A stretch of 16,064 bases of DNA from Granulicella sp. (GTDB taxonomy: Bacteria; Acidobacteriota; Terriglobia; Terriglobales; Acidobacteriaceae). The translations under genes and the position numbers were made by a program. This document shows positions 1 through 16,064 of the stretch, piece by piece. The DNA lies in assembly GCA_027339965.1 (NCBI GenBank), contig DAHWNL010000005.1:1-16064 (forward strand), in the 5' to 3' direction. The notes beneath the pieces are model-generated. The model was given only the letters and a program-made list of their open reading frames with translations. It was not told where the DNA came from and made no database searches. Position 1 is the first letter of the stretch, and each line of letters opens with the position of its first letter.

Positions 1-562
1 GGGTGACCACGCTCCAAGGCGACTCCGGCGCGGCTTCGGCAACGCGCACGCCCGCCGGTGCCCGGCCGTAGAGGCGCGTCATCGAAGTCCTCAGGCCGGT
101 CTCATCGAGAAAGACAAGATGCTCCGGATCGACCTCGGCGACGGCTGCGAGAAACTCTTGACGGCCGATCAGGTTCTCGGGCGTGTCGCGCTCCGCCGCG
201 TGGAGCGACTTTTTTTTTAGCCGCAGGCCCATGCGCTTGAGCCATCGACAAAGCCAGGAGTTATGAATCTTCACCCCTGCCTGCTCATCGAGCTTGATCT
301 GTAACTCGGCCAGCGTCAAGTCCGATTGCGCTGTAAGCCATTGGCGGAGCAGGGCCTGTTCGGCAGCTCTGATCTTGGGCTTGCGACCTGGTTTGTAGGT
401 GGGCCCTGCCATGCTCCCGGTGCGCGTAGAAGCCGCCGAGACCTTTTTCGCCCACCCCAGACTGACGCGAAATTCCGCCGCCAATTCCTCCAGCGTGCCG
501 TATCCCTGCTCATAAGCTGAAAGAAAATTGCGGCGCTACTCCCCCTCGTAGGCTTTAGCCAT
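1..562 (-). pseudogene. IS630-family transposase, 5' part (runs off window); in-frame TAG at codon 9
   Basis: Manual translation from ATG 562: MAKAYEGE*RRNFLSAYEQGYGTLEELAAEFRVSLGWAKK...PGRKPK...SDLTLAELQ...LCRWLKRMGLRLKKKSLHAAERDTPE...HLVFLDETGLRTSMTRLYGRAPAG. The HTH region, KKKSLHAAER and LVFLDETG..MTRLYGR motifs are typical of IS630 transposases. The TAG lies at 538-536. Confidence 0.9.
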
Positions 563-1303: not shown

Positions 1304-4201
1304 TTAGTCGTCATCATCGTTGTTCGGATTGTCCGCGGCGTCATACGGCTGGGCCCCGCGTGGGTCGGGAGCCACCAGCGCGGGCTGGGTGTAGGTCTTG
1401 CCGTCGACGCTCAGCCGCATACTGTACTCTCCAGGTGAAAGCGCCACCGGGCTCCTGCGCCCGGCTGGCTGCTTCGCCGCGACCGTTCCCACTCCGCTGC
1501 ACGCATCCTTTGGATTGGCTTGCGCGGCAGACTCGCCAAACTCCTCTTGCCTGCGCTGCAGATGCAACGCGAAACGATGCATGCCGGCAGCCGCGGAGGG
1601 TGGTGCCGGCGGCTCTCTCCAGATCGCCTGCACGTCAATCTTCTCCGTGTCGACCGGCCTGACGGGTGCATCGCTGGCGGAGCAGACCCGCACCGCCCCC
1701 TGGCTATCCACCAGCTCCAGGCGCAGCGGCGTCGTGGCCGCGCTCTTCAGCCAGTAGTAGGCCACCACACCCTGGGGAGGGTTCTTCTCCTGCGGCTCCT
1801 CGGGTGGCAGCGGCGTTCCATCCTCCGCGCCCGGCACCAGTGACAGTGTGGTTCCAGGCTGGAAGAGATACACCGGCGAAGAGGCGATCTCCCCTCCCCG
1901 GGCCGCCAACTGGCGCAGCGGCGTCATCTGGTCCAACACCCAGAAGCCGCGCCCATGCGTGGCCACAGCCAGATCGTCGCCATGCACCACCAGATCCCGC
2001 ACCGAAGTCGCGGGCATATTCAACTGCAACGGCTGCCACTGGTCGCCATCGTCAAAGGAGACGTACACCCGCAGCTCCGTGGCCGCATACAGCAGGCCCT
2101 TCTGCTTCGGATCTTCCTTCACCGAGTTCACAAACGCTCCCTTGGGAATCCCGCGCGAGATTTCGGTCCAGCTCTTACCGCCGTCGTGGGTGCGATAGAT
2201 ATACGCGTGGAAGTCACCCAGCCGGTGCCGGTCCACGGATGCATAGGCGGTCTCACGGTCAAAGTGCCCGGCCTCGATCTGCGAGATCTTGCTCCAGGTG
2301 GTCAGCGCCTTCGGCGTCAGGTTGCTCCAGTGGGCTCCGTCGTCGCTGGTCCTCCAGATCAGGCCGTCGTCGGTTCCCACCCACAGCATCTTCGCGTCCA
2401 GCGGCGAGGGGCTGATGGTATAGACCACGCCAAACCGGTTGGTCATCGGCTCGTCGATATCCAGCGCCGTCACCGGATCCAGCGTTTTGGGTATACCAGG
2501 GTTCACCCGCGAGAGATCCGGACTGATCTTCACCCACGTGCGTCCCTCGTTGCGGGTGCGGAAGACAAACTGATTGGAGTAATACAGCGCGTCATCCACA
2601 GGAGAAAATACCTCGGGCAGGGTCCAGGTTTTGCGGTAGGGGTCATCGGCATCAGCTTTGGGGATGGAGCCCAGCGGCTGCTGCACGTTGAGCATCTGGT
2701 TGCATCGCCCCGCGCCTGCGCCGTAGAGCATCACCGGGTTCTTTGGGTCGGGGACCACGGTATCGCTCTCTCCCGCCTGGCAGAGAGGCTCCCAGCTACG
2801 GTAGTCGAGCACGCCAAAGCGCGACCAGGTCTCTACACCCACGGCCCCGGAGTCCTGCTGCGCAGCATCCAGCCAGTAGGGAAAACGGCTGTCGGCAGCT
2901 ACATGGTAGAGCTCCGCAGTCGGCTGGTTGTACCACGAGCTCCAGGTCCGGGCCCCGTCCACGCTCACCACCGTACCCTGATCGCTGGAGAGCACCATGC
3001 GATTGCGGTCGCTGGGATTGATCCACAACTGGTGATAGTCGTCGCCGCCCGGCGCTGCCTTCACCGGGACAAAGGTCCTGCCCGCATCCGTCGTGCGGTA
3101 GGTGGCTGTGTTGATCACATAGGCTTCGTCCGGATTGGTGGGATCCACAGTTACCGCCTCAAAGTACCACCCCCGCCCCCACAGCCGCCGCTCGGCGTTC
3201 ACCAGCCGCCAGGTCTTGCCCGCATCGTTGGAGAGATACACGCCACCGGTCGCCTTCGGCGCATTCGGCCCCTTGGGCGTCGTGTGCACCAAGTACGACG
3301 GAGCATGCGACGTGCCAATATCGTCTATCACCGCCCACAGCCGGTTGGGGTTGCTGGGAGCAACGGCGATCCCGATCTTGCCCACATAAGGATCCTCCGG
3401 GAGTCCGCCGTGGAGCTGGATCCAGTGGTCGCCGCCATCGGTCGACTTGTACAACCCGCTGCCCGGCATGTAGGAGGGCGCATAGACCGCCCAGGGCGGA
3501 CGGCGCGTGGCCCACAGCGAGGCATAGAGAACCTGCGGATGTTTTGGATCCATCGCGAGGTCGATCGCGCCCACGCTGTCCGGGCTGCCGGCGTTGTACA
3601 GGATCTTTTTCCAGTGTTGGCCTCCATCGGTGGAGCGATAGACGCCGCGCTCCAGGTTGGCGTCATAGGCGTGCCCCAGCACCGCGACGTACACCCGGTC
3701 GGGATCGGTTGGATCCACCACAATCCGTCCGATGTGCTTGCTGTCGGTGAGTCCGATGTGCGTCCAGGTCTTGCCGGCGTCCACGGACTTGTACATCCCG
3801 TCTCCGTAGGAGTGCTGATTGCGGATATCCGGCTCGCCAGTTCCTACGTACACCACCTTGGGATCGGAGGCAGCCACGGCGATGGCCCCGATGGATCCGA
3901 TGGGAATGCCCTCGTCGGAGATGGGCGTCCAGGTCCGGCCATCGTTCTCTGTCTTCCATACGCCTCCGCCGACGGAGCCCATGTAGAAGGTATCCGGCTC
4001 ACTCTCCACGCCGGCCACGGCAAACGAGCGCCCACCGCGCATGGGCCCCACATCGCGCCACTGCAGGCCGGAGAGCAGCGAGGCCGGATACTGTCCGTTC
4101 TGGGCCAACGCAGCCTGGCCGCCCGCCAGGCAGACGCTGAAAAGGCCAGGCAGGAGGCAGGCGATGCTGAGGAAGAATCGGCAAGAGCGGGAGCAAGTCA
4201 T
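1304..4201 (-). CDS. Secreted VPS10/sortilin-like BNR (Asp-box) repeat beta-propeller protein ('glycosyl hydrolase BNR repeat'), 965 aa
   Basis: Long ORF with GAGG RBS 7 nt upstream, an N-terminal signal peptide, WRDVGPMRGGR start motif, 11 Asp-box-like S/T-x-D-x-G-x-T/H-W repeats, GGDDYH, QQDSG and ATHGRGFW motifs. Confidence 0.92.
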   Translation of the reverse strand: MTCSRSCRFFLSIACLLPGLFSVCLAGGQAALAQNGQYPASLLSGLQWRDVGPMRGGRSFAVAGVESEPDTFYMGSVGGGVWKTENDGRTWTPISDEGIPIGSIGAIAVAASDPKVVYVGTGEPDIRNQHSYGDGMYKSVDAGKTWTHIGLTDSKHIGRIVVDPTDPDRVYVAVLGHAYDANLERGVYRSTDGGQHWKKILYNAGSPDSVGAIDLAMDPKHPQVLYASLWATRRPPWAVYAPSYMPGSGLYKSTDGGDHWIQLHGGLPEDPYVGKIGIAVAPSNPNRLWAVIDDIGTSHAPSYLVHTTPKGPNAPKATGGVYLSNDAGKTWRLVNAERRLWGRGWYFEAVTVDPTNPDEAYVINTATYRTTDAGRTFVPVKAAPGGDDYHQLWINPSDRNRMVLSSDQGTVVSVDGARTWSSWYNQPTAELYHVAADSRFPYWLDAAQQDSGAVGVETWSRFGVLDYRSWEPLCQAGESDTVVPDPKNPVMLYGAGAGRCNQMLNVQQPLGSIPKADADDPYRKTWTLPEVFSPVDDALYYSNQFVFRTRNEGRTWVKISPDLSRVNPGIPKTLDPVTALDIDEPMTNRFGVVYTISPSPLDAKMLWVGTDDGLIWRTSDDGAHWSNLTPKALTTWSKISQIEAGHFDRETAYASVDRHRLGDFHAYIYRTHDGGKSWTEISRGIPKGAFVNSVKEDPKQKGLLYAATELRVYVSFDDGDQWQPLQLNMPATSVRDLVVHGDDLAVATHGRGFWVLDQMTPLRQLAARGGEIASSPVYLFQPGTTLSLVPGAEDGTPLPPEEPQEKNPPQGVVAYYWLKSAATTPLRLELVDSQGAVRVCSASDAPVRPVDTEKIDVQAIWREPPAPPSAAAGMHRFALHLQRRQEEFGESAAQANPKDACSGVGTVAAKQPAGRRSPVALSPGEYSMRLSVDGKTYTQPALVAPDPRGAQPYDAADNPNNDDDD

Positions 4202-4367
4202 GGCAGGACCTCTCTGAGTGGTACGGTTCGGAAGAACTTGGAAGACAGTGGGTATATGTTGAGCCGTGCGCTGGGGCCGCTGAGCTACAGGAGCTTGCCC
4301 CAGCCAACCCAGCCGCCATGCTTTTCTTCTACACTACGTCCAACACGGATGTCGCAGCGCGGAGATC

Positions 4368-4398
4368 CTCCAAGTCCCATCTCACTCCAAGTCCCATC
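4368..4398 (+). repeat. Perfect 14-bp direct repeat just upstream of RBS
   Basis: CTCCAAGTCCCATC at 4368-4381 and 4385-4398. Confidence 0.8.
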
Positions 4399-4410
4399 GC
4401 AGGAGCCGTC

Positions 4411-7400
4411 GTGATTCCCTCCAGCCGCAGTTCACACCTTGCCGTCATCTTCGCACTTTTGAGCGCCGGGCTGTTTCCTGGGCTGGGCGCGGGGTTCGGC
4501 GCCAGCCGCATCGCCGCCCAGACTTCGGCAGAGCCTTCCGGAGGGAAGATCTCCGCTGCCTCCGCGCTGCCCTCTGATGCTCTTTTCTCCGCCATGCGCT
4601 GGCGAGAGGTCGGCCCCATGCGCGCGGGACGCACCCGTGCTCTGGCTGGGGTGGCCGGCCAGCCGTACACCTTCTACATCGGAGCCGTCGGCGGTGGAGT
4701 CTTCAAGACTACGGATGCCGGAGAGACCTGGCACAGCATCTGGAACGGCGAACCCACCGGATCCATCGGCGCCATCGCCGTAGCTCCGTCTGACCCCAGG
4801 ATCATTTATGTGGGCAGCGGCGAGAGCCTGGCTCGCCCCGATCTCTCCACCGGCGATGGCGTCTACAAATCGATCGACGCGGGCAAGACCTGGACTCACC
4901 TGGGACTGCGCGACACCCAGCAGATCGGCCAGGTGGCCGTCGATCCCAGTAACCCGAAGATCGTCTTTGTGGCCGCCGAAGGCCATCCTTATGCACCCAA
5001 TCATCAGCGCGGCCTCTACAAATCGACGGACGGCGGCCTCACCTTCCGGCGCGTGCTGTACATCAATGACCAGACCGGAGCCTCGGACGTCGCCATCGAC
5101 CCGCAGCATCCCAACATCGTCTTTGCCGGTATGTGGCAGCGCCAGGAGGGTCCGTGGGAGAACGGCTCCTGGCAGGGCCCTGACGGCGGTCTTTTCCGCT
5201 CGATCGACGGCGGCAAGACATGGAGGAAGCTCACGGGTGGCGGCCTTCCCGACGACATCGAGCAGGTGAACCTGACCATCTCACCCAGCGATGACCGGCG
5301 CATCTATGCGGAGATTGCGTACGGCCGCAAGGTGGGCCTCTACCGCTCCGACGATGGCGGCAGCACCTGGGTGCACGCTCCCGTGAATGACACTCGCCCC
5401 GAGGAGCGCATTGGCGGCGGCGATCTTCCCGTGCCACGGGTGGATCCCAAAGATCCGGACACGATCTACGTAGCCAGCATCGTCACCTGGAAGTCCACCG
5501 ACGCCGGGCGCACCTGGACCGGCTTTCGCGGTTCGCCGGGGGGCGATGACTACCAGGGCATCTACATCAATCCGAGCAACCCCGGCATCATCGCACTCAC
5601 CAGCGACCAGGGCGCCATCATCACACTGAACGGCGGCAAGACTTGGAGCCAGTGGTACAACCAGCCCACCGCGCAGATGTACCACGTGACCACCGACGAC
5701 GCCTTCCCCTATCGCGTCTGCGGCGGACAGCAGGACAGCGGCTCGGCCTGCGTCTTGAGCCGCAGCGACGACGGCCGCATCACCTTTCATGACTGGCATC
5801 CGGTGGGCATTGAAGAGTACGGCTACGCCGCGCCCGATCCTCTGGACCCCGATATCGTGTATGGCGGCAAGGTCACGCGCTATGACCGCCGCACCGGCCA
5901 GATCGAAGATGTGCAGCCCAGCTTCCTGCGCGCCTACCGCGCGCTGCGCACCGAGCCGCTGCAATTCTCGCCCCTTGATCCGCACAGCCTCTACTTCGCT
6001 ACCAACTTCCTGTGGCTCACCCGCGACGGGGGCAAGACATGGAAGCGGATATCGCCCGACCTGAGCCGCAAGACCTTTCCTCTGCCCGCCGTTCTGGACG
6101 ACTACAAGGACCGCGCTTCCGCCAGGCCCATACGCCGCGGGGTGATCTATGCCCTGGGCCTCAGCCCTCTGGATGCGCAACGGATCTGGGCCGGCACCGA
6201 CGACGGCCTGATCTGGACAACCACGGACGGCGGCGCGCACTGGACCAACGTCACGCCTCCCGCACTCCAGCCCTTCTGGAAGGTCTTCAACATGGACGCC
6301 GGGCACTTCAGCAGCCAGACGGCCTACGCCGCCGTGAATACCATGCGTCTGGATGACATGCGGCCGCATCTGTTCCGCACCCACGATGGCGGCAAGAGCT
6401 GGACCGAGATCGACAACGGCATCCCCGCCGGCGCCGCCACCAGCGCCATCCGCGAGGACCCCAAACAAAAGGGGCTGCTGTATGCAGGCAGCGAAACTCA
6501 GGTTTATGTCTCCTTTGACGACGGAGACCACTGGCAGAGCCTGCGCCTGAACATGCCGGCCAGTTCGGTCCGCGACCTCACCGTGAAGGACGACGATTTG
6601 ATCGCCGCCACCCATGGCCGCGGCTTCCTGATCCTGGACGATGTAACCCCGCTGCGCCAGATTGCGGCCAAAATCTCGGCCCAGAGCGCACCCCAACTCC
6701 AGGCCGAAGCCAGCCTGGCCGCGCAGAACGCCATCCTGTTCGCGCCCCAGACCGCGCTTCGCATACGCAATGACATGAACCCGCCCACGCCCTGGCCGCC
6801 GGAGATGGCGACGGGAACGAACCCGCCCGATGGAGCCGTGATCGACTACTATCTGGGCCCCGATCTGGGAACCCATCCGGGAAGCAAGATCTCCGGTCCG
6901 GTGACCCTGCAGATTCTCAACGCTCAAGGCGAGCTGGTCGCCCAGTTCAAGAGCACCGATCCGGTTCCCCCGCTGGACCCGCGCTACCCTGACCCCACCC
7001 TGTGGGCGCGGCCGCCGCGGGTGCTCTCCGCAGCCGCCGGCTATCATCGCTTCCTTTGGGATATGCGTTATCCAAACGTTCCCGGCATGGCCACGGGGCC
7101 GGATGAGAACGCGGCGATTCCGCATGATACCCCGACCGTACCCTCAGGCCCTTATGTAATGCCTGGCGTTTACAAGGTGCGTCTGCTCGCCGGCGGCCAG
7201 AGCCTGAGCCAGCCTCTGACCATCGTAATGGATCCGAGGGTCAAGACTGCGAACGCCCAACTGAAACAGCAGTTCAACGTCTCCTATGCCCTGTACCAGG
7301 AGATGTTGCAGGCCACGCAGGCCCTGCATCAGATCACCGTGCTGCGCGATCAACTCGACGCGCCCGGCTCCCCGGTTGCTCGCCAAACTGCTGAGGCGCT

Positions 7401-7746
7401 GGAAGCCAGTCTGAACAAGATCGCCGGTCCCGCCGGAGATGAAGACGGGCCGCGCTTCGGCCCTCCCGGAGCGCCCAACCTGAGCACGATCCGTACCCAG
7501 ATGGCGCGGCTTGAGTACTCCATCCAGAGCGCCGACCAGGCACCGACCGCGGCTCAGACCGTCGCTGCCGAACAGCTTGCCAAGCCTCTGCCCGGCCTGC
7601 TGGATGCGTGGAAGCAGGTGAAGGCTACCCAGTTGAAGGCCATCAACGAACAGTTGCGGAGAGAAAACCAGCCGCAGCTTTCCCTGAACACAAGCCAGAT
7701 CGACCATGGCGTGGAGGACCAGATCGAGTACGGCGACGATGATTAG
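4411..7746 (+). CDS. Secreted VPS10/sortilin-like BNR repeat beta-propeller protein, paralogue of 1304-4201, with extra C-terminal helical domain
   Basis: The ORF is open from 4318, but GTG 4411 has AGGAG at 4401-4405 and gives a normal signal peptide. It has WREVGPMRAGR, 11 Asp-box-like repeats, GGDDYQ, QQDSG and ATHGRGF, then an amphipathic helical tail. Confidence 0.92.
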   Translation: MIPSSRSSHLAVIFALLSAGLFPGLGAGFGASRIAAQTSAEPSGGKISAASALPSDALFSAMRWREVGPMRAGRTRALAGVAGQPYTFYIGAVGGGVFKTTDAGETWHSIWNGEPTGSIGAIAVAPSDPRIIYVGSGESLARPDLSTGDGVYKSIDAGKTWTHLGLRDTQQIGQVAVDPSNPKIVFVAAEGHPYAPNHQRGLYKSTDGGLTFRRVLYINDQTGASDVAIDPQHPNIVFAGMWQRQEGPWENGSWQGPDGGLFRSIDGGKTWRKLTGGGLPDDIEQVNLTISPSDDRRIYAEIAYGRKVGLYRSDDGGSTWVHAPVNDTRPEERIGGGDLPVPRVDPKDPDTIYVASIVTWKSTDAGRTWTGFRGSPGGDDYQGIYINPSNPGIIALTSDQGAIITLNGGKTWSQWYNQPTAQMYHVTTDDAFPYRVCGGQQDSGSACVLSRSDDGRITFHDWHPVGIEEYGYAAPDPLDPDIVYGGKVTRYDRRTGQIEDVQPSFLRAYRALRTEPLQFSPLDPHSLYFATNFLWLTRDGGKTWKRISPDLSRKTFPLPAVLDDYKDRASARPIRRGVIYALGLSPLDAQRIWAGTDDGLIWTTTDGGAHWTNVTPPALQPFWKVFNMDAGHFSSQTAYAAVNTMRLDDMRPHLFRTHDGGKSWTEIDNGIPAGAATSAIREDPKQKGLLYAGSETQVYVSFDDGDHWQSLRLNMPASSVRDLTVKDDDLIAATHGRGFLILDDVTPLRQIAAKISAQSAPQLQAEASLAAQNAILFAPQTALRIRNDMNPPTPWPPEMATGTNPPDGAVIDYYLGPDLGTHPGSKISGPVTLQILNAQGELVAQFKSTDPVPPLDPRYPDPTLWARPPRVLSAAAGYHRFLWDMRYPNVPGMATGPDENAAIPHDTPTVPSGPYVMPGVYKVRLLAGGQSLSQPLTIVMDPRVKTANAQLKQQFNVSYALYQEMLQATQALHQITVLRDQLDAPGSPVARQTAEALEASLNKIAGPAGDEDGPRFGPPGAPNLSTIRTQMARLEYSIQSADQAPTAAQTVAAEQLAKPLPGLLDAWKQVKATQLKAINEQLRRENQPQLSLNTSQIDHGVEDQIEYGDDD

Positions 7747-8017: not shown

Positions 8018-11000
8018 TTGCGCCGGACCCGCGCAGGACCTGCGCCGGGCGGACGTGGCCATCCTGTCGAGAACTGGATTGCTGTGATCTCTCTTTGCCC
8101 TGGTCTATCGCTCGCCTGCCTGGCGCTCTGCCTTCCTCTTTTGGGTGCTGGAGCAGCCGCGCAGACCCCCGACACCGCCACGCTCACCGGCATCGTTCAG
8201 GACACGACGCGCGCCGCTGTGCGCGGAGCCAGTGTCAGCATCACCAATCAACTCACCGGTCTGCGCCGCCTCACCCATACCTCCGCGCAGGGCAGGTTCT
8301 CCCTCAGCGGTCTGCCCGTGGCCGGTGAGTACAACCTGGAGGCTGGTCACTCCGGCTTTGCCATCGCGCGCCTGCAGCACATCCGGCTCACCGGCGGAAG
8401 CACCGCCAGCCTGACCCTCACGCTCAGCGTCTCGCCGGCAAATACATCGGTCACCATCAAAGGCGACGCCAACCAGGTTCGCATCGACGAACCCCAGCTT
8501 GGCGACCGTCTGGGCGAATCCGAGATGGATCAGACTCCGCTGTTGAACCGGCGCATCACCTACCTCCCGCTGCTCAACGCCGCCAACCGTCCGGCGATCA
8601 ACCAGGGCGACCTGTTTATGAATCAGGACCTGTTCAACACCAACGGCGCCGGCCGCCGCCAGACCTGGTTCGAGGTCGATGGCGGCAACGCCATCGATAG
8701 CTGGGGTCGGCAGACGATCTTCACCAACATCCCCCTCGACGCGGTTGCCGAGATGACGGTTCTCACCAACAGCTTCTCCGCCCAGTACGGCGACGGAGCC
8801 GGCAGCGTGGTCAACATCGTCACCCGCTCCGGCGGCGACCGGCTCCACGGCAGCGTGCTGGAGCTCTACCGTCCTTCGGGCCCAGAGGCCAAGCTGGCCG
8901 GATTCAACGCCGCCAACGCCACCAGCGGCACGGAGATCACCAACGACACGCTGGACCAGACCGCAGTCTCGCTCTCTGGCCGGCTCCTCCGGCGGAGTCC
9001 CACGTACTTCTTTGCGGCGGGTGAGTTCAGCCAGCAGAACCGGGCCAGCCCGGTCACCTCGCCGCTGGCGCCCGGCAACTTCATTGGCCATTACCAGGAT
9101 GTGATGGGCTTTCTGCGTCTGGACCACCAGTTCTCTCCCCGCCACAACGCCTTCTTCCGCACCAGCGACGACGCCTTTTATGACACCAACCCAGCCGGCA
9201 CCGTAGGCGGCGACTCGCTGCCCAGCGTGGCGCGCACCTTCCACCGCCGCACCTACACCGAGGAGATCGGCGACACCGCCGTGCTCTCGCCCGGCATGGT
9301 CAACAACCTGCGCCTCCAGTTCGAGCTGGGCTCGCCCATCACCCAGTTTGTTCCGGCCATTGACAGCACACAGTTCGTGGTACCCATCGCCGGCCAGCAG
9401 ACCTTCACCTCCGGCACCAGCCAGTCTGCTCTGCTGCTCAACCACCAGTTTTCCTTCAATGACACCGTGGCCGCCGCGCTGGGCAACCAGCAGATCACCT
9501 TTGGCGCCAGCCTGATCTACGCGCGCTCCGGCGGCGACAGCAAGGAGTTCGGCGGTCCCATCTACCTGGGCTCGTTCACCTACAACACCTGCTCGCTGCC
9601 CGGCGCCACCGCCGCTCAGACGGAGACCTACTGTGAGAGCCCGGCCTACCTCGGCAACATTGCCAACGTGGCCAGCTACGAGCAGAGCTACGGTAACGCC
9701 AACTACCTGGTGAATGATGTGCAGTACGCCTTCTTCGTCCAGGACGACGACCGCATCTCACCCCGGCTGGTGCTCAACTACGGCCTGCGCTACTTCGGCC
9801 AGACCTTCACCAACACCCATAACGGCTTTGCGCCGCGCGTGGGCTTCGATGCTGACCTGTTCGGCAACGGCCGCACCGTGGTGCGGGGCGGCTTCGGCAT
9901 CTACTACTCCCAGGTGGTGGACAACGAAGAGGCCAACTACGCGCTCACCGGCCCCACTGGCGTCTTCAACTACAATGCCGCGCCCGGCCAGGTCGGCTTC
10001 CCCTCCAGCATCTCCGCGGCCCCGCTGCCGGCGTTTCCCTCAGGCGCGGTTGCGCCTCTGCGCAGCCTCTACATCCGCCCCGGCGAGAGCTCGTATCTCA
10101 ACCAGTTCTTCCCCACCTCGACGCTGATTGGCTACCCCAGCGCCCTGCTGAACCCTTACACCGAGCAGTACACGCTCAGCCTGGGCCAGCAGCTTAGCGC
10201 GCGCACCCTGCTGAGCATCGACTATCTGGGCGCATACACCGTGCATATCTACCGTCCGTTGGACGTTGACCCGCCCACCACCTTCAACCGCACCAACAAC
10301 GCTCAGATCCGCTCTGCTACGGCGGCCAACTGCACGCGGCCCTACTGGGTCTGGTGGTATCAGCAGAAGAGAATGACCTGCAACCCCAACCAGGTCTCCA
10401 ACCCCGAGCCGCCCTACAGCGTGATTCAGAGCGACGTGAACGACGGCTACCTCCACTACAACGCGCTGGATGTGAATCTGCGCGAGGACTTCGGCCAGAA
10501 GGGGATCATGCTGGTCAGCTATACCTGGTCTCACACCCTGGATAACGTCGACCCCGACGCTACCGTCCAGAATCCGAACAATCCCCTCTTCGTCAATCAA
10601 GCCGAGTATGGAAACGCCCTCTACGACCAGCGCAACCGCTTGGTCGCCAGCGGCTACTACACCGCTCCGTTCCAGCTCCAGTTCGGCGGCATCCTCACCC
10701 TGGCTGGGGGCTTGCCCTATAACCTGGTTACCGGCGTGTACAACAGCGGGGACATCGGCGCCACCACCGACCGCCCCATCATCAACGGCGTCCTGGTGGG
10801 CCGCGACACCGGCCGGGGAACGCCTTTGTACTACCTGGACCCCTTTCTGGCGCGTGACTTCCGCGTTTTGGACCGCCTGGACCTGAACCTGCGCGCCGAG
10901 GCCTTCAACGTCCTCAACCACGCCAACTTCGCCAGCTTCAACGGCACCTACGGCACGGGCAACACCGCTCCCCCCACGCTCGGCTCTCCCGTCTACGGGA

Positions 11001-11056
11001 TCGCCTCCCAGTTCCCCGCACGCGAGTTTCAGTTCTCGGCAAGAGTCAGCTTTTGA
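8018..11056 (+). CDS. TonB-dependent receptor, Oar-like, with N-terminal carboxypeptidase-regulatory-like domain
   Basis: Signal peptide, TLTGIVQD..AAVRGASVSITN..TG N-domain, plug motifs (VDGGN, DAVAEMTVLTNSFSAQYG..AGSVVNIVTRSG), FVQDD.RISPRLVLNYGLRY, FAPRVGF, VVRGGFGIYY, RAEAFNVLNHANF and terminal Phe (REFQFSARVSF). The start is uncertain (TTG 8018 or GTG 8084). Confidence 0.93.
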   Translation: MRRTRAGPAPGGRGHPVENWIAVISLCPGLSLACLALCLPLLGAGAAAQTPDTATLTGIVQDTTRAAVRGASVSITNQLTGLRRLTHTSAQGRFSLSGLPVAGEYNLEAGHSGFAIARLQHIRLTGGSTASLTLTLSVSPANTSVTIKGDANQVRIDEPQLGDRLGESEMDQTPLLNRRITYLPLLNAANRPAINQGDLFMNQDLFNTNGAGRRQTWFEVDGGNAIDSWGRQTIFTNIPLDAVAEMTVLTNSFSAQYGDGAGSVVNIVTRSGGDRLHGSVLELYRPSGPEAKLAGFNAANATSGTEITNDTLDQTAVSLSGRLLRRSPTYFFAAGEFSQQNRASPVTSPLAPGNFIGHYQDVMGFLRLDHQFSPRHNAFFRTSDDAFYDTNPAGTVGGDSLPSVARTFHRRTYTEEIGDTAVLSPGMVNNLRLQFELGSPITQFVPAIDSTQFVVPIAGQQTFTSGTSQSALLLNHQFSFNDTVAAALGNQQITFGASLIYARSGGDSKEFGGPIYLGSFTYNTCSLPGATAAQTETYCESPAYLGNIANVASYEQSYGNANYLVNDVQYAFFVQDDDRISPRLVLNYGLRYFGQTFTNTHNGFAPRVGFDADLFGNGRTVVRGGFGIYYSQVVDNEEANYALTGPTGVFNYNAAPGQVGFPSSISAAPLPAFPSGAVAPLRSLYIRPGESSYLNQFFPTSTLIGYPSALLNPYTEQYTLSLGQQLSARTLLSIDYLGAYTVHIYRPLDVDPPTTFNRTNNAQIRSATAANCTRPYWVWWYQQKRMTCNPNQVSNPEPPYSVIQSDVNDGYLHYNALDVNLREDFGQKGIMLVSYTWSHTLDNVDPDATVQNPNNPLFVNQAEYGNALYDQRNRLVASGYYTAPFQLQFGGILTLAGGLPYNLVTGVYNSGDIGATTDRPIINGVLVGRDTGRGTPLYYLDPFLARDFRVLDRLDLNLRAEAFNVLNHANFASFNGTYGTGNTAPPTLGSPVYGIASQFPAREFQFSARVSF

Positions 11057-11066
11057 CCCTGCATGT

Positions 11067-11117
11067 GCGCCAAGGGCCCGCTGAAACCTGGCGTCGGTTC
11101 CGGCGGGCCCTTGGCGC
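11067..11117. terminator. Strong hairpin between convergent genes (probable bidirectional terminator or REP-like)
   Basis: GCGCCAAGGGCCCGC (11067-11081) pairs perfectly with GCGGGCCCTTGGCGC (11103-11117) and can extend inward with G-U pairs. There is no U-tract on either strand. Confidence 0.65.
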
Positions 11118-11155
11118 GTGAAACCGAGAATCGGGCCCGAGAATTTGCTGACGGG

Positions 11156-11758
11156 TTACATTTGCGCGGCGTCGATGTCGATCTCGATCTTGACCTCATC
11201 GCTCAGAACCGCGTCGCCGCTCTTCAGCATGCCGTTGAAGTCCAGGCCGAAGTCCTTGCGGTTCAGCGTCGTGGTGGCTGTAAATCCGCGGTGCAGGGTC
11301 TTGCCGTCCATCCCGATCTCCGGCTTCCCCGGATCATCCATGTCCAGCACCACCTGCCGGGTGACGCCATGCATCGTCAGGTTGCCCACAACGTCATAAT
11401 GGTCGCCGTCCTTGCGCACGCTGGTGCTCTGGAATGTCATGTCTGGATACTTGGTCACATCAAAGAACCGCGGGCTCTTCAGATCCTTGTCCCGAAAGCC
11501 CACTCCCGTGTCCACCGTATCGATCGGGATTGTCGCATCAACGCCGGACTTGGCCAGGTCAGTGGGATCAAAGGTAATCACGCCCGACAGTCCATGGAAG
11601 GACCCATGCACCGTGGTGATTCCCATATGCCGAATCGCAAAGTCCGCCTCCGAGTGCATCGGATCGATCTTCCACTGGGTCGCCTGCGCGCACAGAATCT
11701 GCCCACCCAACACAAGAACGGCCGCAGCCGCCCATCCTGCCTTCGTGATTCTCTTCAT
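11156..11758 (-). CDS. yceI: YceI-family periplasmic lipid/polyisoprenoid-binding protein, 200 aa
   Basis: ATG 11758 with GGAGG upstream and a signal peptide, then WKIDPMHSEADFAIRHMG, DTG..RDKDLKS..FFDV.KYP, GNLTMHGVTR and LNRKDFG motifs. Confidence 0.93.
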   Translation of the reverse strand: MKRITKAGWAAAAVLVLGGQILCAQATQWKIDPMHSEADFAIRHMGITTVHGSFHGLSGVITFDPTDLAKSGVDATIPIDTVDTGVGFRDKDLKSPRFFDVTKYPDMTFQSTSVRKDGDHYDVVGNLTMHGVTRQVVLDMDDPGKPEIGMDGKTLHRGFTATTTLNRKDFGLDFNGMLKSGDAVLSDEVKIEIDIDAAQM

Positions 11759-11785
11759 TCCCTGCCCTCCAAAATGAGATTCCGC

Positions 11786-11900
11786 TAAAGCAGTTTCAGT
11801 GTAGGTGCACCCAATGCCTCGACTTCTATGGGCGTTTTCCCCAATGAAAACGCCACTGTAAGCCCTCTTCAGGACACCCATCAACGCTGAAAATGCTATA
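11786..11900. mobile_element. 115-bp MITE-like element, copy 1
   Basis: Ends TAAAGCAGTTTCAGTG ... CGCTGAAAATGCTATA form imperfect terminal inverted repeats bounded by TA. It has an internal hairpin GGCGTTTTC-N6-GAAAACGCC. A second copy lies at 15738-15852. Confidence 0.8.
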
Positions 11901-12599
11901 AGAAACGACACAACTTCCCCGCCTTCTTGCCGGTCAAGAGCAGCCTCTACGGCTGAAAGGGCCAGCCAGACGAAGAAACCACCGGCGCCACTGCGGCGTG
12001 AGCGAAACCAGAAGCGGAGGATCGGAGCACTATGAAGGAAGCCTACACGACGACCCCCCTGGGCGTCGAAGCTCACCGCTTCAGCCCTTCTCCGCCCGGC
12101 CTGGAAACATCCCGAATCCGGCAAAATCACTCTAAGAACTCCGTAGGGATCTGTTGAGGGAGCACGGGGCCAGCCGGCAAGAGGATCCAGGGGTTGGAAT
12201 CGCCCGCGCAGGGAAGTCATCGATGGGACAACTCCGCGGGCAGAGCTCCGTCTTCCCGAGGCTCCAACGCGCCTGCCTGGATGCCCTTGGGCACTGTAAC
12301 CTGTTGAAGACCAAGAGACGTCTTTTTGATATAGAGACGCCTTGGAGGGAAACGAAAGGCTTATTTTGGGAAGCGCAATGTCGATCCGAGTGCCGATGCT
12401 ATGCCAACGCGCGCCTCTTCCGCAAGACGGCTTGCATGATCCTGGCGGCACCACTCTCAGTGGAGCAGCTTTCAGCCAGTTCCGACGCTCGACCCACAGC
12501 CTGGGCGAGCCCTGGCCATGTACAGGGACGTGTAGTCTTCTATCTAGTTCCAAGCGCTGCTCTCTTCCATCGTTCTTTTTTCCAGAGGCTGGGCCCACG

Positions 12600-15500
12600 T
12601 TGAAACGTCATCCGATCGGTCTTCGTCTTCATTTGCTGCCGCGCGTGGTCGCCGCCAGTTGCCTCCTAGCGGTTGCTTCCTTCTGCCTTCCGCTGCCGGC
12701 CTTCGCCCAAGCGAAGGCCTCTGCTGCGGATCAGGCTGTCACCGCGCAACCGGAGGCGCGCATCACCCAGCCGATCGACGACACCGTCCGCGTCCCCATC
12801 GCTCACTCCCATCCGCCGCTCGCCCGCGCTGCGGATGACGCTGGGCCCCTGGCCGGCAACACGCCGCTGCAGGGCATGGCTCTGGTCTTCAGCCGCAGCC
12901 CCGCCCAGCAAGCTGCGCTGGATGCTCTGGTCCAGGCCCAGCAGAATCCCGCCTCCCCGCACTACCACCATTGGATCACCCCGGCCCAGTACGCCGCCCA
13001 GTTCGGCGCTGCGCAGACGGACATCGACGCCGCCGAGGGCTGGCTGCAGCAGCACGGCTTCAGCGTGGATTCTGTGACACCGAACCACGCGCGCATCTTC
13101 TTCTCTGGAACCGCTGCCCAGTTCGCCTCCGCCTTCGGCGTCCCTCTGCACAACTACCGCTTCACCCCCGTCGGCGCGCAGACCCCGGTGACCCACTTCG
13201 CCCCCTCCGGGGACCTGACCATCCCCGCCGCGCTTAGCGGAGCCATCCTCAGCGTAGAGAACATCAGCGACTTCCGTCCTCACTCTCACTTCCGGTTGCG
13301 CCCCGACCATGCAGTGGCCCAGGACGTGCAGGCCCACTTCACCTCGTCTATCTCGGGCGAAAACTACCTCACGCCGGACGACATCGACACCATCTATGAC
13401 GTCACCCCCATCACCAGCCAGGGCTTCAACGGCTCGGGTGAGACTATCGTCATCGCCGGCCAGTCCGCTTTTGTGAACTCCGACCTGACCAACTTCCAGA
13501 ACGCCCTCGGCATCCCCAACAAGCTCCCCACCGTGACCCTGGTCCCGAATACCGGAAGCTCCACCATCGGGGACACCAGCACCGACAGCGACGAGGTCGA
13601 GTCGGACATCGATCTGGAGTACTCCGAGGCCATGGCCCAGGGCGCCAACATCGACTTCATCTATACCGGCAACGCAACGAACTCCGGCGGAGCCTTTCAG
13701 GCGCTCCAATATGCAATCGACAACGGAATCGGCGATATCATCAGTTCCAGCTACGGTGCCTGCGAACCGGGCCTCGGGCAATCCACCTACAATACCTACA
13801 ATGCCTCCCTGGAGGAGGCCTCCAGCCAGGGCCAGACCGTCATCTCAGCCGCCGGCGACGAGGGCTCGACGGACTGCTACGGCTCGTATGCGTCTTCGGA
13901 TACCGCGGCAAACGAGCAACTGGCCGTAGACTTCCCCGGCTCCAGCGAGTACGTCACCAGCGTGGGCGGCACTGAGTTCCCGGTGACCGACATCGCACCC
14001 GGCAGCCCCTACTTCGACGCGCGGAGCAGCACGGACATCATCAGTTCCGCTAAATCTTACATCCCGGAGGAGGTCTGGAACGACGACGCCGGCGATGTCA
14101 GCCTCGGAGCGACCAGCCCCAATCCGATCTCGGCCGGCGGCGGCGGAGTCAGCATCTACACCCCCATCCCGACCTGGCAAGAACCGAGCCAAGTCCCTGT
14201 TCCCGGTCTACCCAGCAACAGCAGCGGCCGGATGGTCCCCGACATCTCCCTCTACGCCTCGCCCTCAGAGCCTGAAGTTTCAACCGATAAATTCTACGGC
14301 GGCTATCTGATCTGCTCCAGCGACCAGAACTTCACCAACATCACAGGAAGCTGCTCTAACGGCTTCCGGAACGCGAGCGGCGATCTCACCGTCGCCGGCG
14401 GAACCAGCTTTGCCGCTCCCACGTTCGCCGGTATGCTGGCCATTCTGGACCAGGAGAAGGGCTACAGCGCAACGGGAGGAAATTCGACGGGCGGACAGGG
14501 CGAGATCAACACTGAGCTGTACACCCTGGCAGCCAGCGCCAGTGTCTACGCCTCAGCCTTCCATGACATCACCCAGGTCGGCTCCGACCTGGGCAACAAC
14601 TGCGCTGCCGGAACAACCTGGTGCGGCACTGGCCCGGACACCACGGAGTACTACGCCGGAACCGGCTACGATGAGGCCTCCGGCCTGGGCTCCATCGACT
14701 TTGCCAACCTGGTCAACGCCTGGCCAAAGAACACCTCCAGCAGCCAGCTCCTCGATACCACCACCACCTTGACCGCGGCGACTCTCTCCCCCGTCTCGGG
14801 CGCCATTGACGCCATCACCATCACCGTTTGCCCGGCGAGCGGATGTCCCCCCGCTGCAACTCTCACCGGCACGGTCTCAGTCAGCGTCAACGGCGGCGCG
14901 GCGACGACGGTCACCCTCGCCAACGGCGTGGGCACCTACAACTTCTCCGCAACTGCCACGGGAACCTACGTCGTCCAGGCGACTTACTCCGGCGACAGCA
15001 CCTACGCCACCTCCAACGCTTCCGTAACGCTCACCCTGGGCTCCTCCACCTCCAGCGGCGTCTTTGGCGTCGCCGCCAGCAACGTCAGTCTGGCTCCCGG
15101 AAACTCCGCGACAGGCTCGATCGTCGTTACGCCCACCAACGGCTTCGCTGGCACGGTCACGCTCTCAGTCAATGATGGATCGCTTACGGACGGCTGCGTT
15201 GTCATCAACCCAACCTCTGTCTCCATCACCAGCGCAGCCACGGCTACCTCCAGTTACACCGTCTACACCAGCACCACGGCCTGCGCGAGCGCCGGAGCGG
15301 CCCGGCCCGGCTCCCGGATCGTCTTTGTCCACCCAACCGCCGCTCAGCCTGGCAACAACTCTCCGGCTTCTCCTTGGCGGCGGCTACCGCTCCCCGGCTC
15401 GCTGGCAGGCCTGCTCTTGATCGCCGGCCTGGATCGCCGCTCCCGCAGGCTGCGCCGCCTGTGGCTGCGCGGGGGCCTGGCGCTGGGGCTGCTCCTGGCG

Positions 15501-15662
15501 CTCTTGTGCGGCGGCCTGGAATTGGCAGGCTGCAGCGGCGGATCCTCCAACAGCACCACCACCTCCAGCAACGCCACCCCCGCCGGAACCTACACCCTCA
15601 CCATCACCGGAGCCTCCGGCTCGGTCACCAGCTCCGCCAACTTCACCGTGACGGTCAACTGA
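12600..15662 (+). CDS. S53 family (sedolisin/kumamolisin-like) serine protease precursor with pro-domain, Ig-like domains and C-terminal membrane hairpin/lipobox, ~1020 aa
   Basis: TTG 12600 with GAGG upstream gives a signal peptide (..LPAFA|QA). Pro-domain motif QQNPASPHYHHWITPAQYAAQFG; catalytic E-x-x-x-D (ESDID), AAGDEG and GGTSFAAP; Ca-site GYDEASGLGS; Big_3-like ATYSGDSTYATS. The ORF is open from 12342. Confidence 0.92.
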   Translation: MKRHPIGLRLHLLPRVVAASCLLAVASFCLPLPAFAQAKASAADQAVTAQPEARITQPIDDTVRVPIAHSHPPLARAADDAGPLAGNTPLQGMALVFSRSPAQQAALDALVQAQQNPASPHYHHWITPAQYAAQFGAAQTDIDAAEGWLQQHGFSVDSVTPNHARIFFSGTAAQFASAFGVPLHNYRFTPVGAQTPVTHFAPSGDLTIPAALSGAILSVENISDFRPHSHFRLRPDHAVAQDVQAHFTSSISGENYLTPDDIDTIYDVTPITSQGFNGSGETIVIAGQSAFVNSDLTNFQNALGIPNKLPTVTLVPNTGSSTIGDTSTDSDEVESDIDLEYSEAMAQGANIDFIYTGNATNSGGAFQALQYAIDNGIGDIISSSYGACEPGLGQSTYNTYNASLEEASSQGQTVISAAGDEGSTDCYGSYASSDTAANEQLAVDFPGSSEYVTSVGGTEFPVTDIAPGSPYFDARSSTDIISSAKSYIPEEVWNDDAGDVSLGATSPNPISAGGGGVSIYTPIPTWQEPSQVPVPGLPSNSSGRMVPDISLYASPSEPEVSTDKFYGGYLICSSDQNFTNITGSCSNGFRNASGDLTVAGGTSFAAPTFAGMLAILDQEKGYSATGGNSTGGQGEINTELYTLAASASVYASAFHDITQVGSDLGNNCAAGTTWCGTGPDTTEYYAGTGYDEASGLGSIDFANLVNAWPKNTSSSQLLDTTTTLTAATLSPVSGAIDAITITVCPASGCPPAATLTGTVSVSVNGGAATTVTLANGVGTYNFSATATGTYVVQATYSGDSTYATSNASVTLTLGSSTSSGVFGVAASNVSLAPGNSATGSIVVTPTNGFAGTVTLSVNDGSLTDGCVVINPTSVSITSAATATSSYTVYTSTTACASAGAARPGSRIVFVHPTAAQPGNNSPASPWRRLPLPGSLAGLLLIAGLDRRSRRLRRLWLRGGLALGLLLALLCGGLELAGCSGGSSNSTTTSSNATPAGTYTLTITGASGSVTSSANFTVTVN

Positions 15663-15853: not shown

Positions 15854-16064
15854 GGCGACTCTGATTAAGTTCTTACGTTTCCACCGTCCGATGGTTCTAG
15901 TTTGCAATCATCGAGGTGAGCGTGGATGGAACAGCAGCAGAGGTTGGCGATGGCGGCAGGATGTGAGAAGTGCGCGAAGGTGACGCGTGGTGCAGAGTTT
16001 CTTTCGCAGATGGAGATCGTGGTTCCGTGGGGTGAGTTGTGGGCCGAGATCGAGCCGTTTTATC
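15854..16064 (+). mobile_element. IS5-family (IS5 subgroup) insertion sequence, left end
   Basis: GGCGACTCTGATTAAGTT after ..TAG resembles IS5-subgroup left ends (GG-N-CTGATTAA). The transposase start follows ~70 bp later. Confidence 0.7.
15926..16064 (+). CDS. IS5-family transposase, N-terminal part (runs off window; integrity unknown)
   Basis: GAGGTG RBS, then MEQQQRLAMAAGCEKCAKVTRGAEFLSQMEIVVPWGELWAEIEPFY, matching the IS5 N-terminus pattern K-x-T-R-R-x-x-F-L-x-x-M-x-x-x-V-P-W-x-x-L-x-x-x-I-E-P-x-Y. Confidence 0.85.
   Translation, partial: MEQQQRLAMAAGCEKCAKVTRGAEFLSQMEIVVPWGELWAEIEPFY

Follow-up and report, generated by a model that had tools for sequence, protein, structure and literature searches.

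The Peptidase Gene and Its C-terminal Tail

The DNA considered here is a contig of 16,064 nucleotides from Granulicella sp., a member of the Acidobacteriaceae (DAHWNL010000005.1 in assembly GCA_027339965.1), and the whole contig is referred to as the window. The element of interest is the C-terminal tail of a large peptidase encoded on its forward strand, by an open reading frame (ORF) at 12342..15662 that has 1106 codons if the earliest possible start is used. Where translation truly begins is uncertain, and a candidate TTG at 12600 directly precedes what appears, when the translation is read by eye, to be a Sec-type signal peptide, with a hydrophobic core at 12642..12707 (residues 101-122) that ends in AFA and is followed by QAKA. 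Downstream lie a pro-kumamolisin activation domain at 12837..13274 (residues 166-311; PF09286, E 7e-24), the region of an S53 catalytic domain at 13416..14267 (residues 359-642), which matches kumamolisin chains at residues 18-260, and a Big_3_5 immunoglobulin-like (Ig-like) domain at 14769..15035 (residues 810-898; PF16640, E 4.8e-10). The peptidase resembles solved kumamolisins (1t1e_A, E 8.9e-27) and tripeptidyl-peptidase 1 chains, and these similarities, together with the PF09286 match, therefore assign it to the S53 sedolisin-type (kumamolisin-type) peptidases. By the homology of its pro-domain and catalytic domain, the tail-bearing protein is an exported S53 sedolisin; the named relatives of the gene come from Granulicella sp., Edaphobacter sp., and metagenome-assembled genomes of Acidobacteriaceae.

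The elements of the tail had been located in a preliminary description of this DNA, and all of them were found in frame within this single ORF at the positions given there. The N-terminal part of a split Ig-like domain, corresponding approximately to strands A to E, occupies 15063..15272 (residues 908-977) and is followed by a Pro-rich linker at 15273..15383, which is poorly conserved and predicted to be disordered. Hydrophobic segment 1 (LPLPGSLAGLLLIAGL; helix 1), at 15384..15431, is short and contains Pro and Gly, and it is succeeded at 15432..15470 by a loop with 7 Arg among 13 residues. This loop also has the character of the n-region of an internal lipoprotein signal, of which hydrophobic segment 2 (helix 2, 15471..15530), ending in L-A-G, would be the h-region. 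The lipobox LAGC (15522-15533) contains Cys1064, encoded at 15531..15533, and a Ser/Thr/Gly tether (15534..15575) leads from this Cys to a β-hairpin, TPAGTYTLTITGASGSVTSSANFTVTVN, at 15576..15659, which represents the two final strands of the split domain; the stop codon is at 15660-15662. Cleavage before Cys1064 would leave 43 residues, in agreement with the length of the product predicted earlier.

Membership of a Catalogued Family

The last 108 residues of the protein (residues 999-1106), which include helix 1, match the NCBIfam model NF058595.1 (invert_tail) with 65.1 bits and an E value of 6.5e-18 over model positions 10-113 of 113, the curated cut-off being 37 bits; in a six-frame search the match of this tail scores 75.7 bits. 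The match reaches the last codon of a large protein that has an N-terminal signal-peptide-like segment, and the tail has the layout of the family, a helix, a basic loop, and a helix ending in the lipobox Cys. Because the match lies above the cut-off, the tail belongs to a catalogued family and is not a new signal. NCBI already curates the family under the name lipo-invert putative C-terminal anchoring domain-containing protein, in which the anchoring role is itself labeled "putative," so that the novelty of the tail as a signal is unsupported and the preliminary view of it as undescribed has to be abandoned. The match is far beyond chance, as judged from its E value and from a search, conducted as for the genome of origin, in which NF058595 scored above the cut-off in none of 14 control genomes. 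In the portion of the literature consulted, no relevant paper was found on lipo-invert, NF058595, or an internal or C-terminal lipobox.

Paralogues of the tail had been expected, and the genome from which the window derives (3.8 Mb in 88 contigs) contains 11 matches to NF058595 at E ≤ 0.01, 7 of them above the cut-off. Each of the seven terminates a large ORF of 894-2111 codons, measured from stop to stop, and the passengers are unrelated, comprising two S53 peptidases together with NHL, β-propeller, SBBP, and Big_3_5 proteins. In the phylum as a whole, 41 of 401 sampled genomes have a match above the cut-off (a tally that takes in one unpublished genome, G152, with a single match, on which the result does not rest). 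The tail is carried by all 33 of the other sampled genomes of the same family, often with at least 11 matches per genome; it is also present in the one genome sampled from each of two sister families and in none of the three from a third.

Two deviant copies were observed. A variant tail at residues ∼1520-1640 of a protein of 1640 residues (P0078) has ∼90 extra residues between the lipobox Cys and the final hairpin; these look like a further small β domain, and the lipidated fragment would in this case be a larger lipoprotein. In the genome of origin, an orphan tail at 60454-60594 (+) of contig C12 (locus L008) retains just the last 39 residues, beginning with the Cys, and these share 54% identity with the tail of contig C14. 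Both of the genes that flank it are on the other strand, and helix 1, the upstream half-domain, and a usable signal peptide are all missing; because it is intergenic and without a usable signal peptide, it is regarded as a remnant.

The existence of this remnant, and the resemblance of the segment from the Arg-rich loop onward to a complete lipoprotein precursor, would fit an artifact in which two genes, one for a protein ending after helix 1 and one for a small lipoprotein, or else a decayed gene, are read through as one ORF. However, such a read-through is very unlikely because 36 of 36 tail-bearing C-termini from many genomes (7 from the genome of origin and 29 from others) have both parts in the same frame with no intervening stop, as do four orthologues of 70-88% identity that retain the whole tail. 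No conserved internal start residue was seen in the loop, and no free-standing small versions were found by a search that, being based on words shared with one query, is weak evidence of absence. The only hit among the 16 candidates of 41-132 residues in that search, P0152, was rejected as a C-terminal fragment that retains both helices.

An Ig-like Domain Split by a Membrane Cassette

In all seven paralogues, the half-domain of ∼70 residues and the hairpin of ∼28 residues are separated by a stretch of 70-98 residues that comprises the linker, a helix, the basic loop, and a second helix. A profile of these seven sequences matched 25,604 proteins at E ≤ 0.001 among 1.84 billion representatives, and in the best 150 of these the distance between half-domain and hairpin is bimodal, with 497 of 632 pairs separated by 0-9 residues and 22 of 632 by 60-109 residues. 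In 25 pairs the two parts are separated by at least 40 residues. Of these pairs, 18 are cassettes of helix, basic segment, helix, and lipobox that end 0-13 residues before the C terminus; the other 7 are not cassettes and reflect missed hits or other inserts. Ten representatives with split tails carry database names such as "hypothetical protein" and "CSLREA domain-containing protein."

The contiguous copies allow the intact domain to be described by a profile of 97 positions, constructed from 286 contiguous domains of 114 proteins (at most 3 per protein, drawn from 420). This profile matches each of the 36 tail-bearing C-termini as two colinear pieces, the first starting at positions 1-15 and ending at 51-88 and the second starting at 52-72 and ending at 95-97, and the break falls every time in one particular loop, near profile positions 66-72. 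In the copy in the window, the pieces cover positions 6-70 and 57-97, the hairpin being the C-terminal part of the second. The upstream half spans ∼71 of the 97 positions and lacks the last two long strands; by the profile it is incomplete alone, and the preliminary estimate that the domain stops after about five strands was roughly right. It should be noted that there is some circularity in this comparison, since the contiguous domains were chosen with profiles built from split copies; despite this, the contiguity of the intact copies and the fixed break in the split copies are facts of sequence. Pfam has no model that scores above its cut-off for the intact domain, giving only sub-threshold matches to I-set and DUF5980.

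The proposal that a membrane hairpin is inserted inside an Ig fold is thus borne out at the level of sequence, where the comparisons support a cassette of helix, basic loop, and helix with a lipobox that has entered one Ig-like fold, always at the same loop. The genome of origin was found to have one contiguous copy of the domain and seven split copies; the contiguous one, at residues 1304-1394, resides in the ORF of a GH38 α-mannosidase (contig C51:20858-25597 (+), locus L018).

Fold Models

AlphaFold2 was run on the last 199 residues of the protein with alignments of 7 and of 36 sequences. With both, the predicted local distance difference test score (pLDDT) is 88-96 for residues 1-70 of the segment, which form the upstream half, and 90-97 for the hairpin, whose strands are residues 175-185 and 188-198; the corresponding values are 57-80 for the helices, ∼50 for the tether, and <50 for the linker. 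The best structural match of the 7-sequence model is the Ig-like linker domain of the sialidase of Micromonospora viridifaciens (1eut_A, residues 406-502; Z 12.7, root mean square deviation 1.7, 96 residues aligned, 25% identity), and the 36-sequence model again retrieves this domain (2ber, 1wcq, and 1eut; Z 12.3-12.7, root mean square deviation 1.6-1.8, 96 residues aligned). The upstream half provides <80 ordered residues, and therefore the alignment of 96 residues to a single domain of 97 needs the hairpin as well. Pilus chaperones and subunits also occur among the fold matches of both models. The expectation that the tail completes the β-sandwich is in accord with these predictions, which support a single Ig-like sandwich formed from the two halves, with the tail supplying the two missing strands in both models. 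The sialidase domain differs from the modeled one in being a single contiguous chain without a membrane cassette.

It had also been suggested that the two parts might assemble when folded as separate chains. When residues 1-80 and 157-199 of the segment were treated as two chains, the score was 0.49 as compared with 0.01 for the best of three controls, with contact agreement of at least 94% between runs and a partner pLDDT of at least 65. Of 157 solved complexes, 116 reach the mark used, as do 2 of 215 mismatched pairs, and at scores of ≤0.60 only 18 of the 157 solved complexes, together with both mismatches, are found; these benchmark counts hold only roughly here because an alignment of our own was used. 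The result adds little. Two pieces that come from a single domain may pass simply because they resemble folds already solved, and to this extent the suggestion is sustained in direction and weakly in force.

The Lipobox and the Lipoprotein Machinery

In the alignment of the 36 tails (29% mean column identity), the Cys of the lipobox is the sole invariant column, and it is present in all 18 of the split tails among the database representatives, in keeping with the preliminary interpretation. The preceding residue is Gly in 24 tails, Ala in 7, and Ser in 5, whereas position +2 is Gly, Ser, Ala, Ile, or Asn and never Asp. The last Lys or Arg lies 12-23 residues before the Cys (median 18.5), the 45 residues before the Cys contain a mean of 4.8 Lys plus Arg as opposed to 0.36 Asp plus Glu, and the would-be mature peptides are 36-51 residues long. 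The tails therefore present an invariant Cys that follows a small residue behind basic and hydrophobic stretches, as in a lipoprotein signal, but the Cys is residue 1064 of 1106 in the window copy and the signal is not N-terminal. Cys1064 would be the site of diacylglyceryl transfer and, after cleavage by signal peptidase II, the new N terminus.

A PROSITE-style lipobox pattern is matched by 29 of the 36 tails. The window copy does not match it because of the Glu at position -4 (codon 15519-15521), to which the preliminary description had correctly drawn attention and which is replaced by Gly in all four of the close tail-bearing orthologues (L048-L051). The Glu is a lineage-specific change that might weaken recognition by Lgt or Lsp.

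The genome of origin encodes one Lsp, two Lgt, one Lnt, one LolA, and three rhomboids. The two Lgt homologues, at C25:19441-20256 (-) and C24:19188-19886 (-), score 120.5 and 65 bits, respectively, and the possibility that one of them is a paralogue dedicated to the tail was considered and rejected. The 11 genomes sampled from the same family have 1-3 Lgt copies each, and the range for the phylum's other families is 1-5 (a sample that includes the unpublished genomes G024 and G049, of which the statement is independent), and because multiple copies are common across the phylum, the second Lgt is not tied to the tail in the sampled genomes.

Proposed Mechanism

The last ∼200 residues of the peptidase are probably, although with considerable room for doubt, a lipo-invert C-terminal anchoring module in which a lipidated and cleaved tail completes an Ig-like domain and so anchors the passenger. 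The module would have been built by insertion of the cassette into the loop that precedes the last two strands of the 97-residue domain. The N-terminal signal peptide would direct the peptidase through Sec until transfer is halted at helix 1, acting as a stop-transfer anchor with its N-terminal end outside and its C-terminal end inside, so that the Arg-rich loop would be kept in the cytoplasm. Helix 2 would then re-export the last 43 residues and expose the lipobox on the outer side of the inner membrane, where the invariant Cys would be lipidated by Lgt and the chain cut in front of it by Lsp. The lipidated peptide of ∼43 residues would serve as the final hairpin of the Ig-like domain, held in a lasting non-covalent complex, and the passenger would be lipid-anchored at its C-terminal end. 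The anatomical part of this interpretation is supported by the evidence described above, and the mechanism is plausible.

Several considerations weigh against it. Helix 1 has only 16 residues, which include two Pro and three Gly. The 36 tails were selected as the sequences that best match a model in which the Cys is included, and this selection somewhat favors its apparent invariance; the window copy is joined by six other tails in departing from the PROSITE-style lipobox pattern. AlphaFold would put the hairpin into the fold for a cut and an uncut chain alike, and the models are of the uncut chain; the two-chain prediction, for its part, weakly supports assembly from separate chains. A two-gene version of the module, with a separate small hairpin lipoprotein, was not encountered within the limited reach of the search described above. 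Furthermore, the lipid anchor seems redundant in the absence of another cut or of extraction, because cleavage by Lsp would leave the passenger attached to helix 1, the loop, and helix 2. The parts of the literature and data collections that were consulted contained no experiment, proteomic data, or paper on the tail.

An alternative is a plain two-helix anchor on the periplasmic face of the inner membrane, in which the Ig-like domain closes within an uncut chain, or within a cut chain that helix 1 still anchors, and in which lipidation of the Cys is inconsequential or the Cys has another role. Helix 1 and the Arg cluster alone suffice as an anchor, the AlphaFold models are of a single chain, and neither a releasing protease nor a conserved cleavage motif was found: in a crude parse of the 36 tails, in which the Cys was misplaced in two rows, nothing in the linker or helix 1 was invariant, [RKHQ]P being present in the linker of just 20 and the start of helix 1 having Trp in 19 and P.?G or PL in 17. 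However, a two-helix anchor leaves unexplained the sole invariant Cys and the Gly, Ala, or Ser that precedes it in 36 of 36 tails, as well as the second helix and re-exported hairpin in every copy, when one C-terminal helix would do. We consider such an anchor rather unlikely. A start of helix 1 resembling Trp-Leu-x-Leu-Pro-Gly occurs among the 36 tails.

A second processing site could be indicated by the semi-conserved features of the linker and of the beginning of helix 1. In an extension of the proposed lipidated-tail mechanism, the module would be a hand-over device in which the cut by Lsp is followed by the action of a second protease that frees the passenger from helix 1 and by Lol transport to the outer membrane, the passenger being held during this transport only by the two strands of a triacylated peptide of ∼40 residues. 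This further step is a speculative one, and on balance we doubt that it takes place.

Relation to Known Systems

Relative to NF058595 the present tail shows no difference in kind, having the same C-terminal place and the same succession of helix, basic loop, helix, lipobox, and short β tail; it differs from its orthologues within the family in having Glu in place of Gly at position -4. The NF058595 model begins after the upstream Ig half, and the split-domain context is therefore outside the model. With classical lipoprotein signals processed by Lgt, Lsp, and Lnt, the tail shares a basic n-region, a hydrophobic stretch of 12-23 residues, Gly, Ala, or Ser at position -1, and an invariant Cys, but its signal lies ∼40 residues from the C terminus, behind a stop-transfer helix, and the mature product would consist of only the 36-51 residues noted above.

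Tripartite C-terminal sorting signals are known from the LPXTG/sortase, PEP-CTERM/exosortase, GlyGly-CTERM/rhombosortase, and PGF-CTERM/archaeosortase systems. The tail is likewise C-terminal and has a hydrophobic helix followed by an Arg/Lys cluster, so that helix 1 and the basic cluster might be read as a sorting signal of the sortase, exosortase, or rhombosortase type that is cut by a dedicated enzyme, with the lipoprotein tail being a separate product with its own role. The layout of motif, helix, and Arg cluster and the semi-conserved start of helix 1 are compatible with this reading, as is the presence in the genome of origin of two exosortase homologues in addition to the rhomboids. Unlike these signals, however, the tail continues beyond the cluster with another helix, the lipobox, and a folded hairpin. 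No dedicated sorting enzyme was identified, and the whole protein, when compared with NCBIfam at E ≤ 1, gives only NF058595 and neither PEP-CTERM (TIGR02595) nor any other signal. Moreover, the motifs are not invariant, and the split of the Ig-like domain is left unexplained. The specific candidate of an exosortase substrate was rejected because the five PEP-CTERM hits in the genome of origin are all located apart from the seven tails. A sorting signal of this type is thus improbable.

The working principle of the proposed lipidated-tail mechanism is shared with animal mucins and adhesion receptors. Their SEA and GAIN domains are β-rich and cut themselves in a loop, after which the terminal strand or strands, attached to the membrane anchor, stay bound non-covalently and hold the large extracellular part. 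They rely on self-cleavage and a protein helix as anchor, whereas a cut by signal peptidase II and a lipid anchor are proposed for the tail, and we know of no sequence relation between them. In the donor-strand complementation of chaperone-usher pili, an incomplete Ig-like fold is completed by strands of another chain. Completion by strands would be common to both systems, but in the tail two strands of the same precursor would be used, and the purpose would be anchoring and not polymerization.

If the proposed mechanism is correct, it would allow diderm bacteria to give a protein a lipid anchor at its C-terminal end with only the ordinary N-terminal lipoprotein machinery and a domain that is cut but remains assembled. 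It would explain the retention in the envelope of many large hydrolases and adhesin-like proteins of Acidobacteriaceae, and the module would be a compact, portable anchoring tag. Were the hand-over step also to operate, the system would be a bacterial counterpart of SEA/GAIN tethering, on which at least 7 to 11, or more, proteins in each genome of one soil family would rely. For the present protease the result is modest, in that it is one more member of a family catalogued by NCBI.

Neighboring Genes

Upstream of the peptidase gene, at 8018-11056 (+), is a gene for a protein with a CarboxypepD_reg domain and an outer-membrane β-barrel that resembles TonB-dependent receptors, and between the two genes, at 11063-11788 (+), lies an ORF of 241 residues without a Pfam match. 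The location of the β-barrel gene and the 241-residue ORF directly upstream of the peptidase suggests a polymer-uptake neighborhood. Farther to the left, two large proteins with Sortilin/Vps10-BNR repeats are encoded at 1304-4201 (-) and 4318-7746 (+). Opposite the first of these is an ORF of 819 codons at 1955-4414 (+), which matches no family and probably represents a shadow frame in GC-rich DNA. Both ends of the contig appear to carry mobile-element genes. At the right end, an ORF that opens at 15926-16063 (+) has no Pfam match and resembles the start of a transposase gene; at the left end, 2-484 (-) encodes a transposase-type N terminus of the HTH_33/HTH_32 families.

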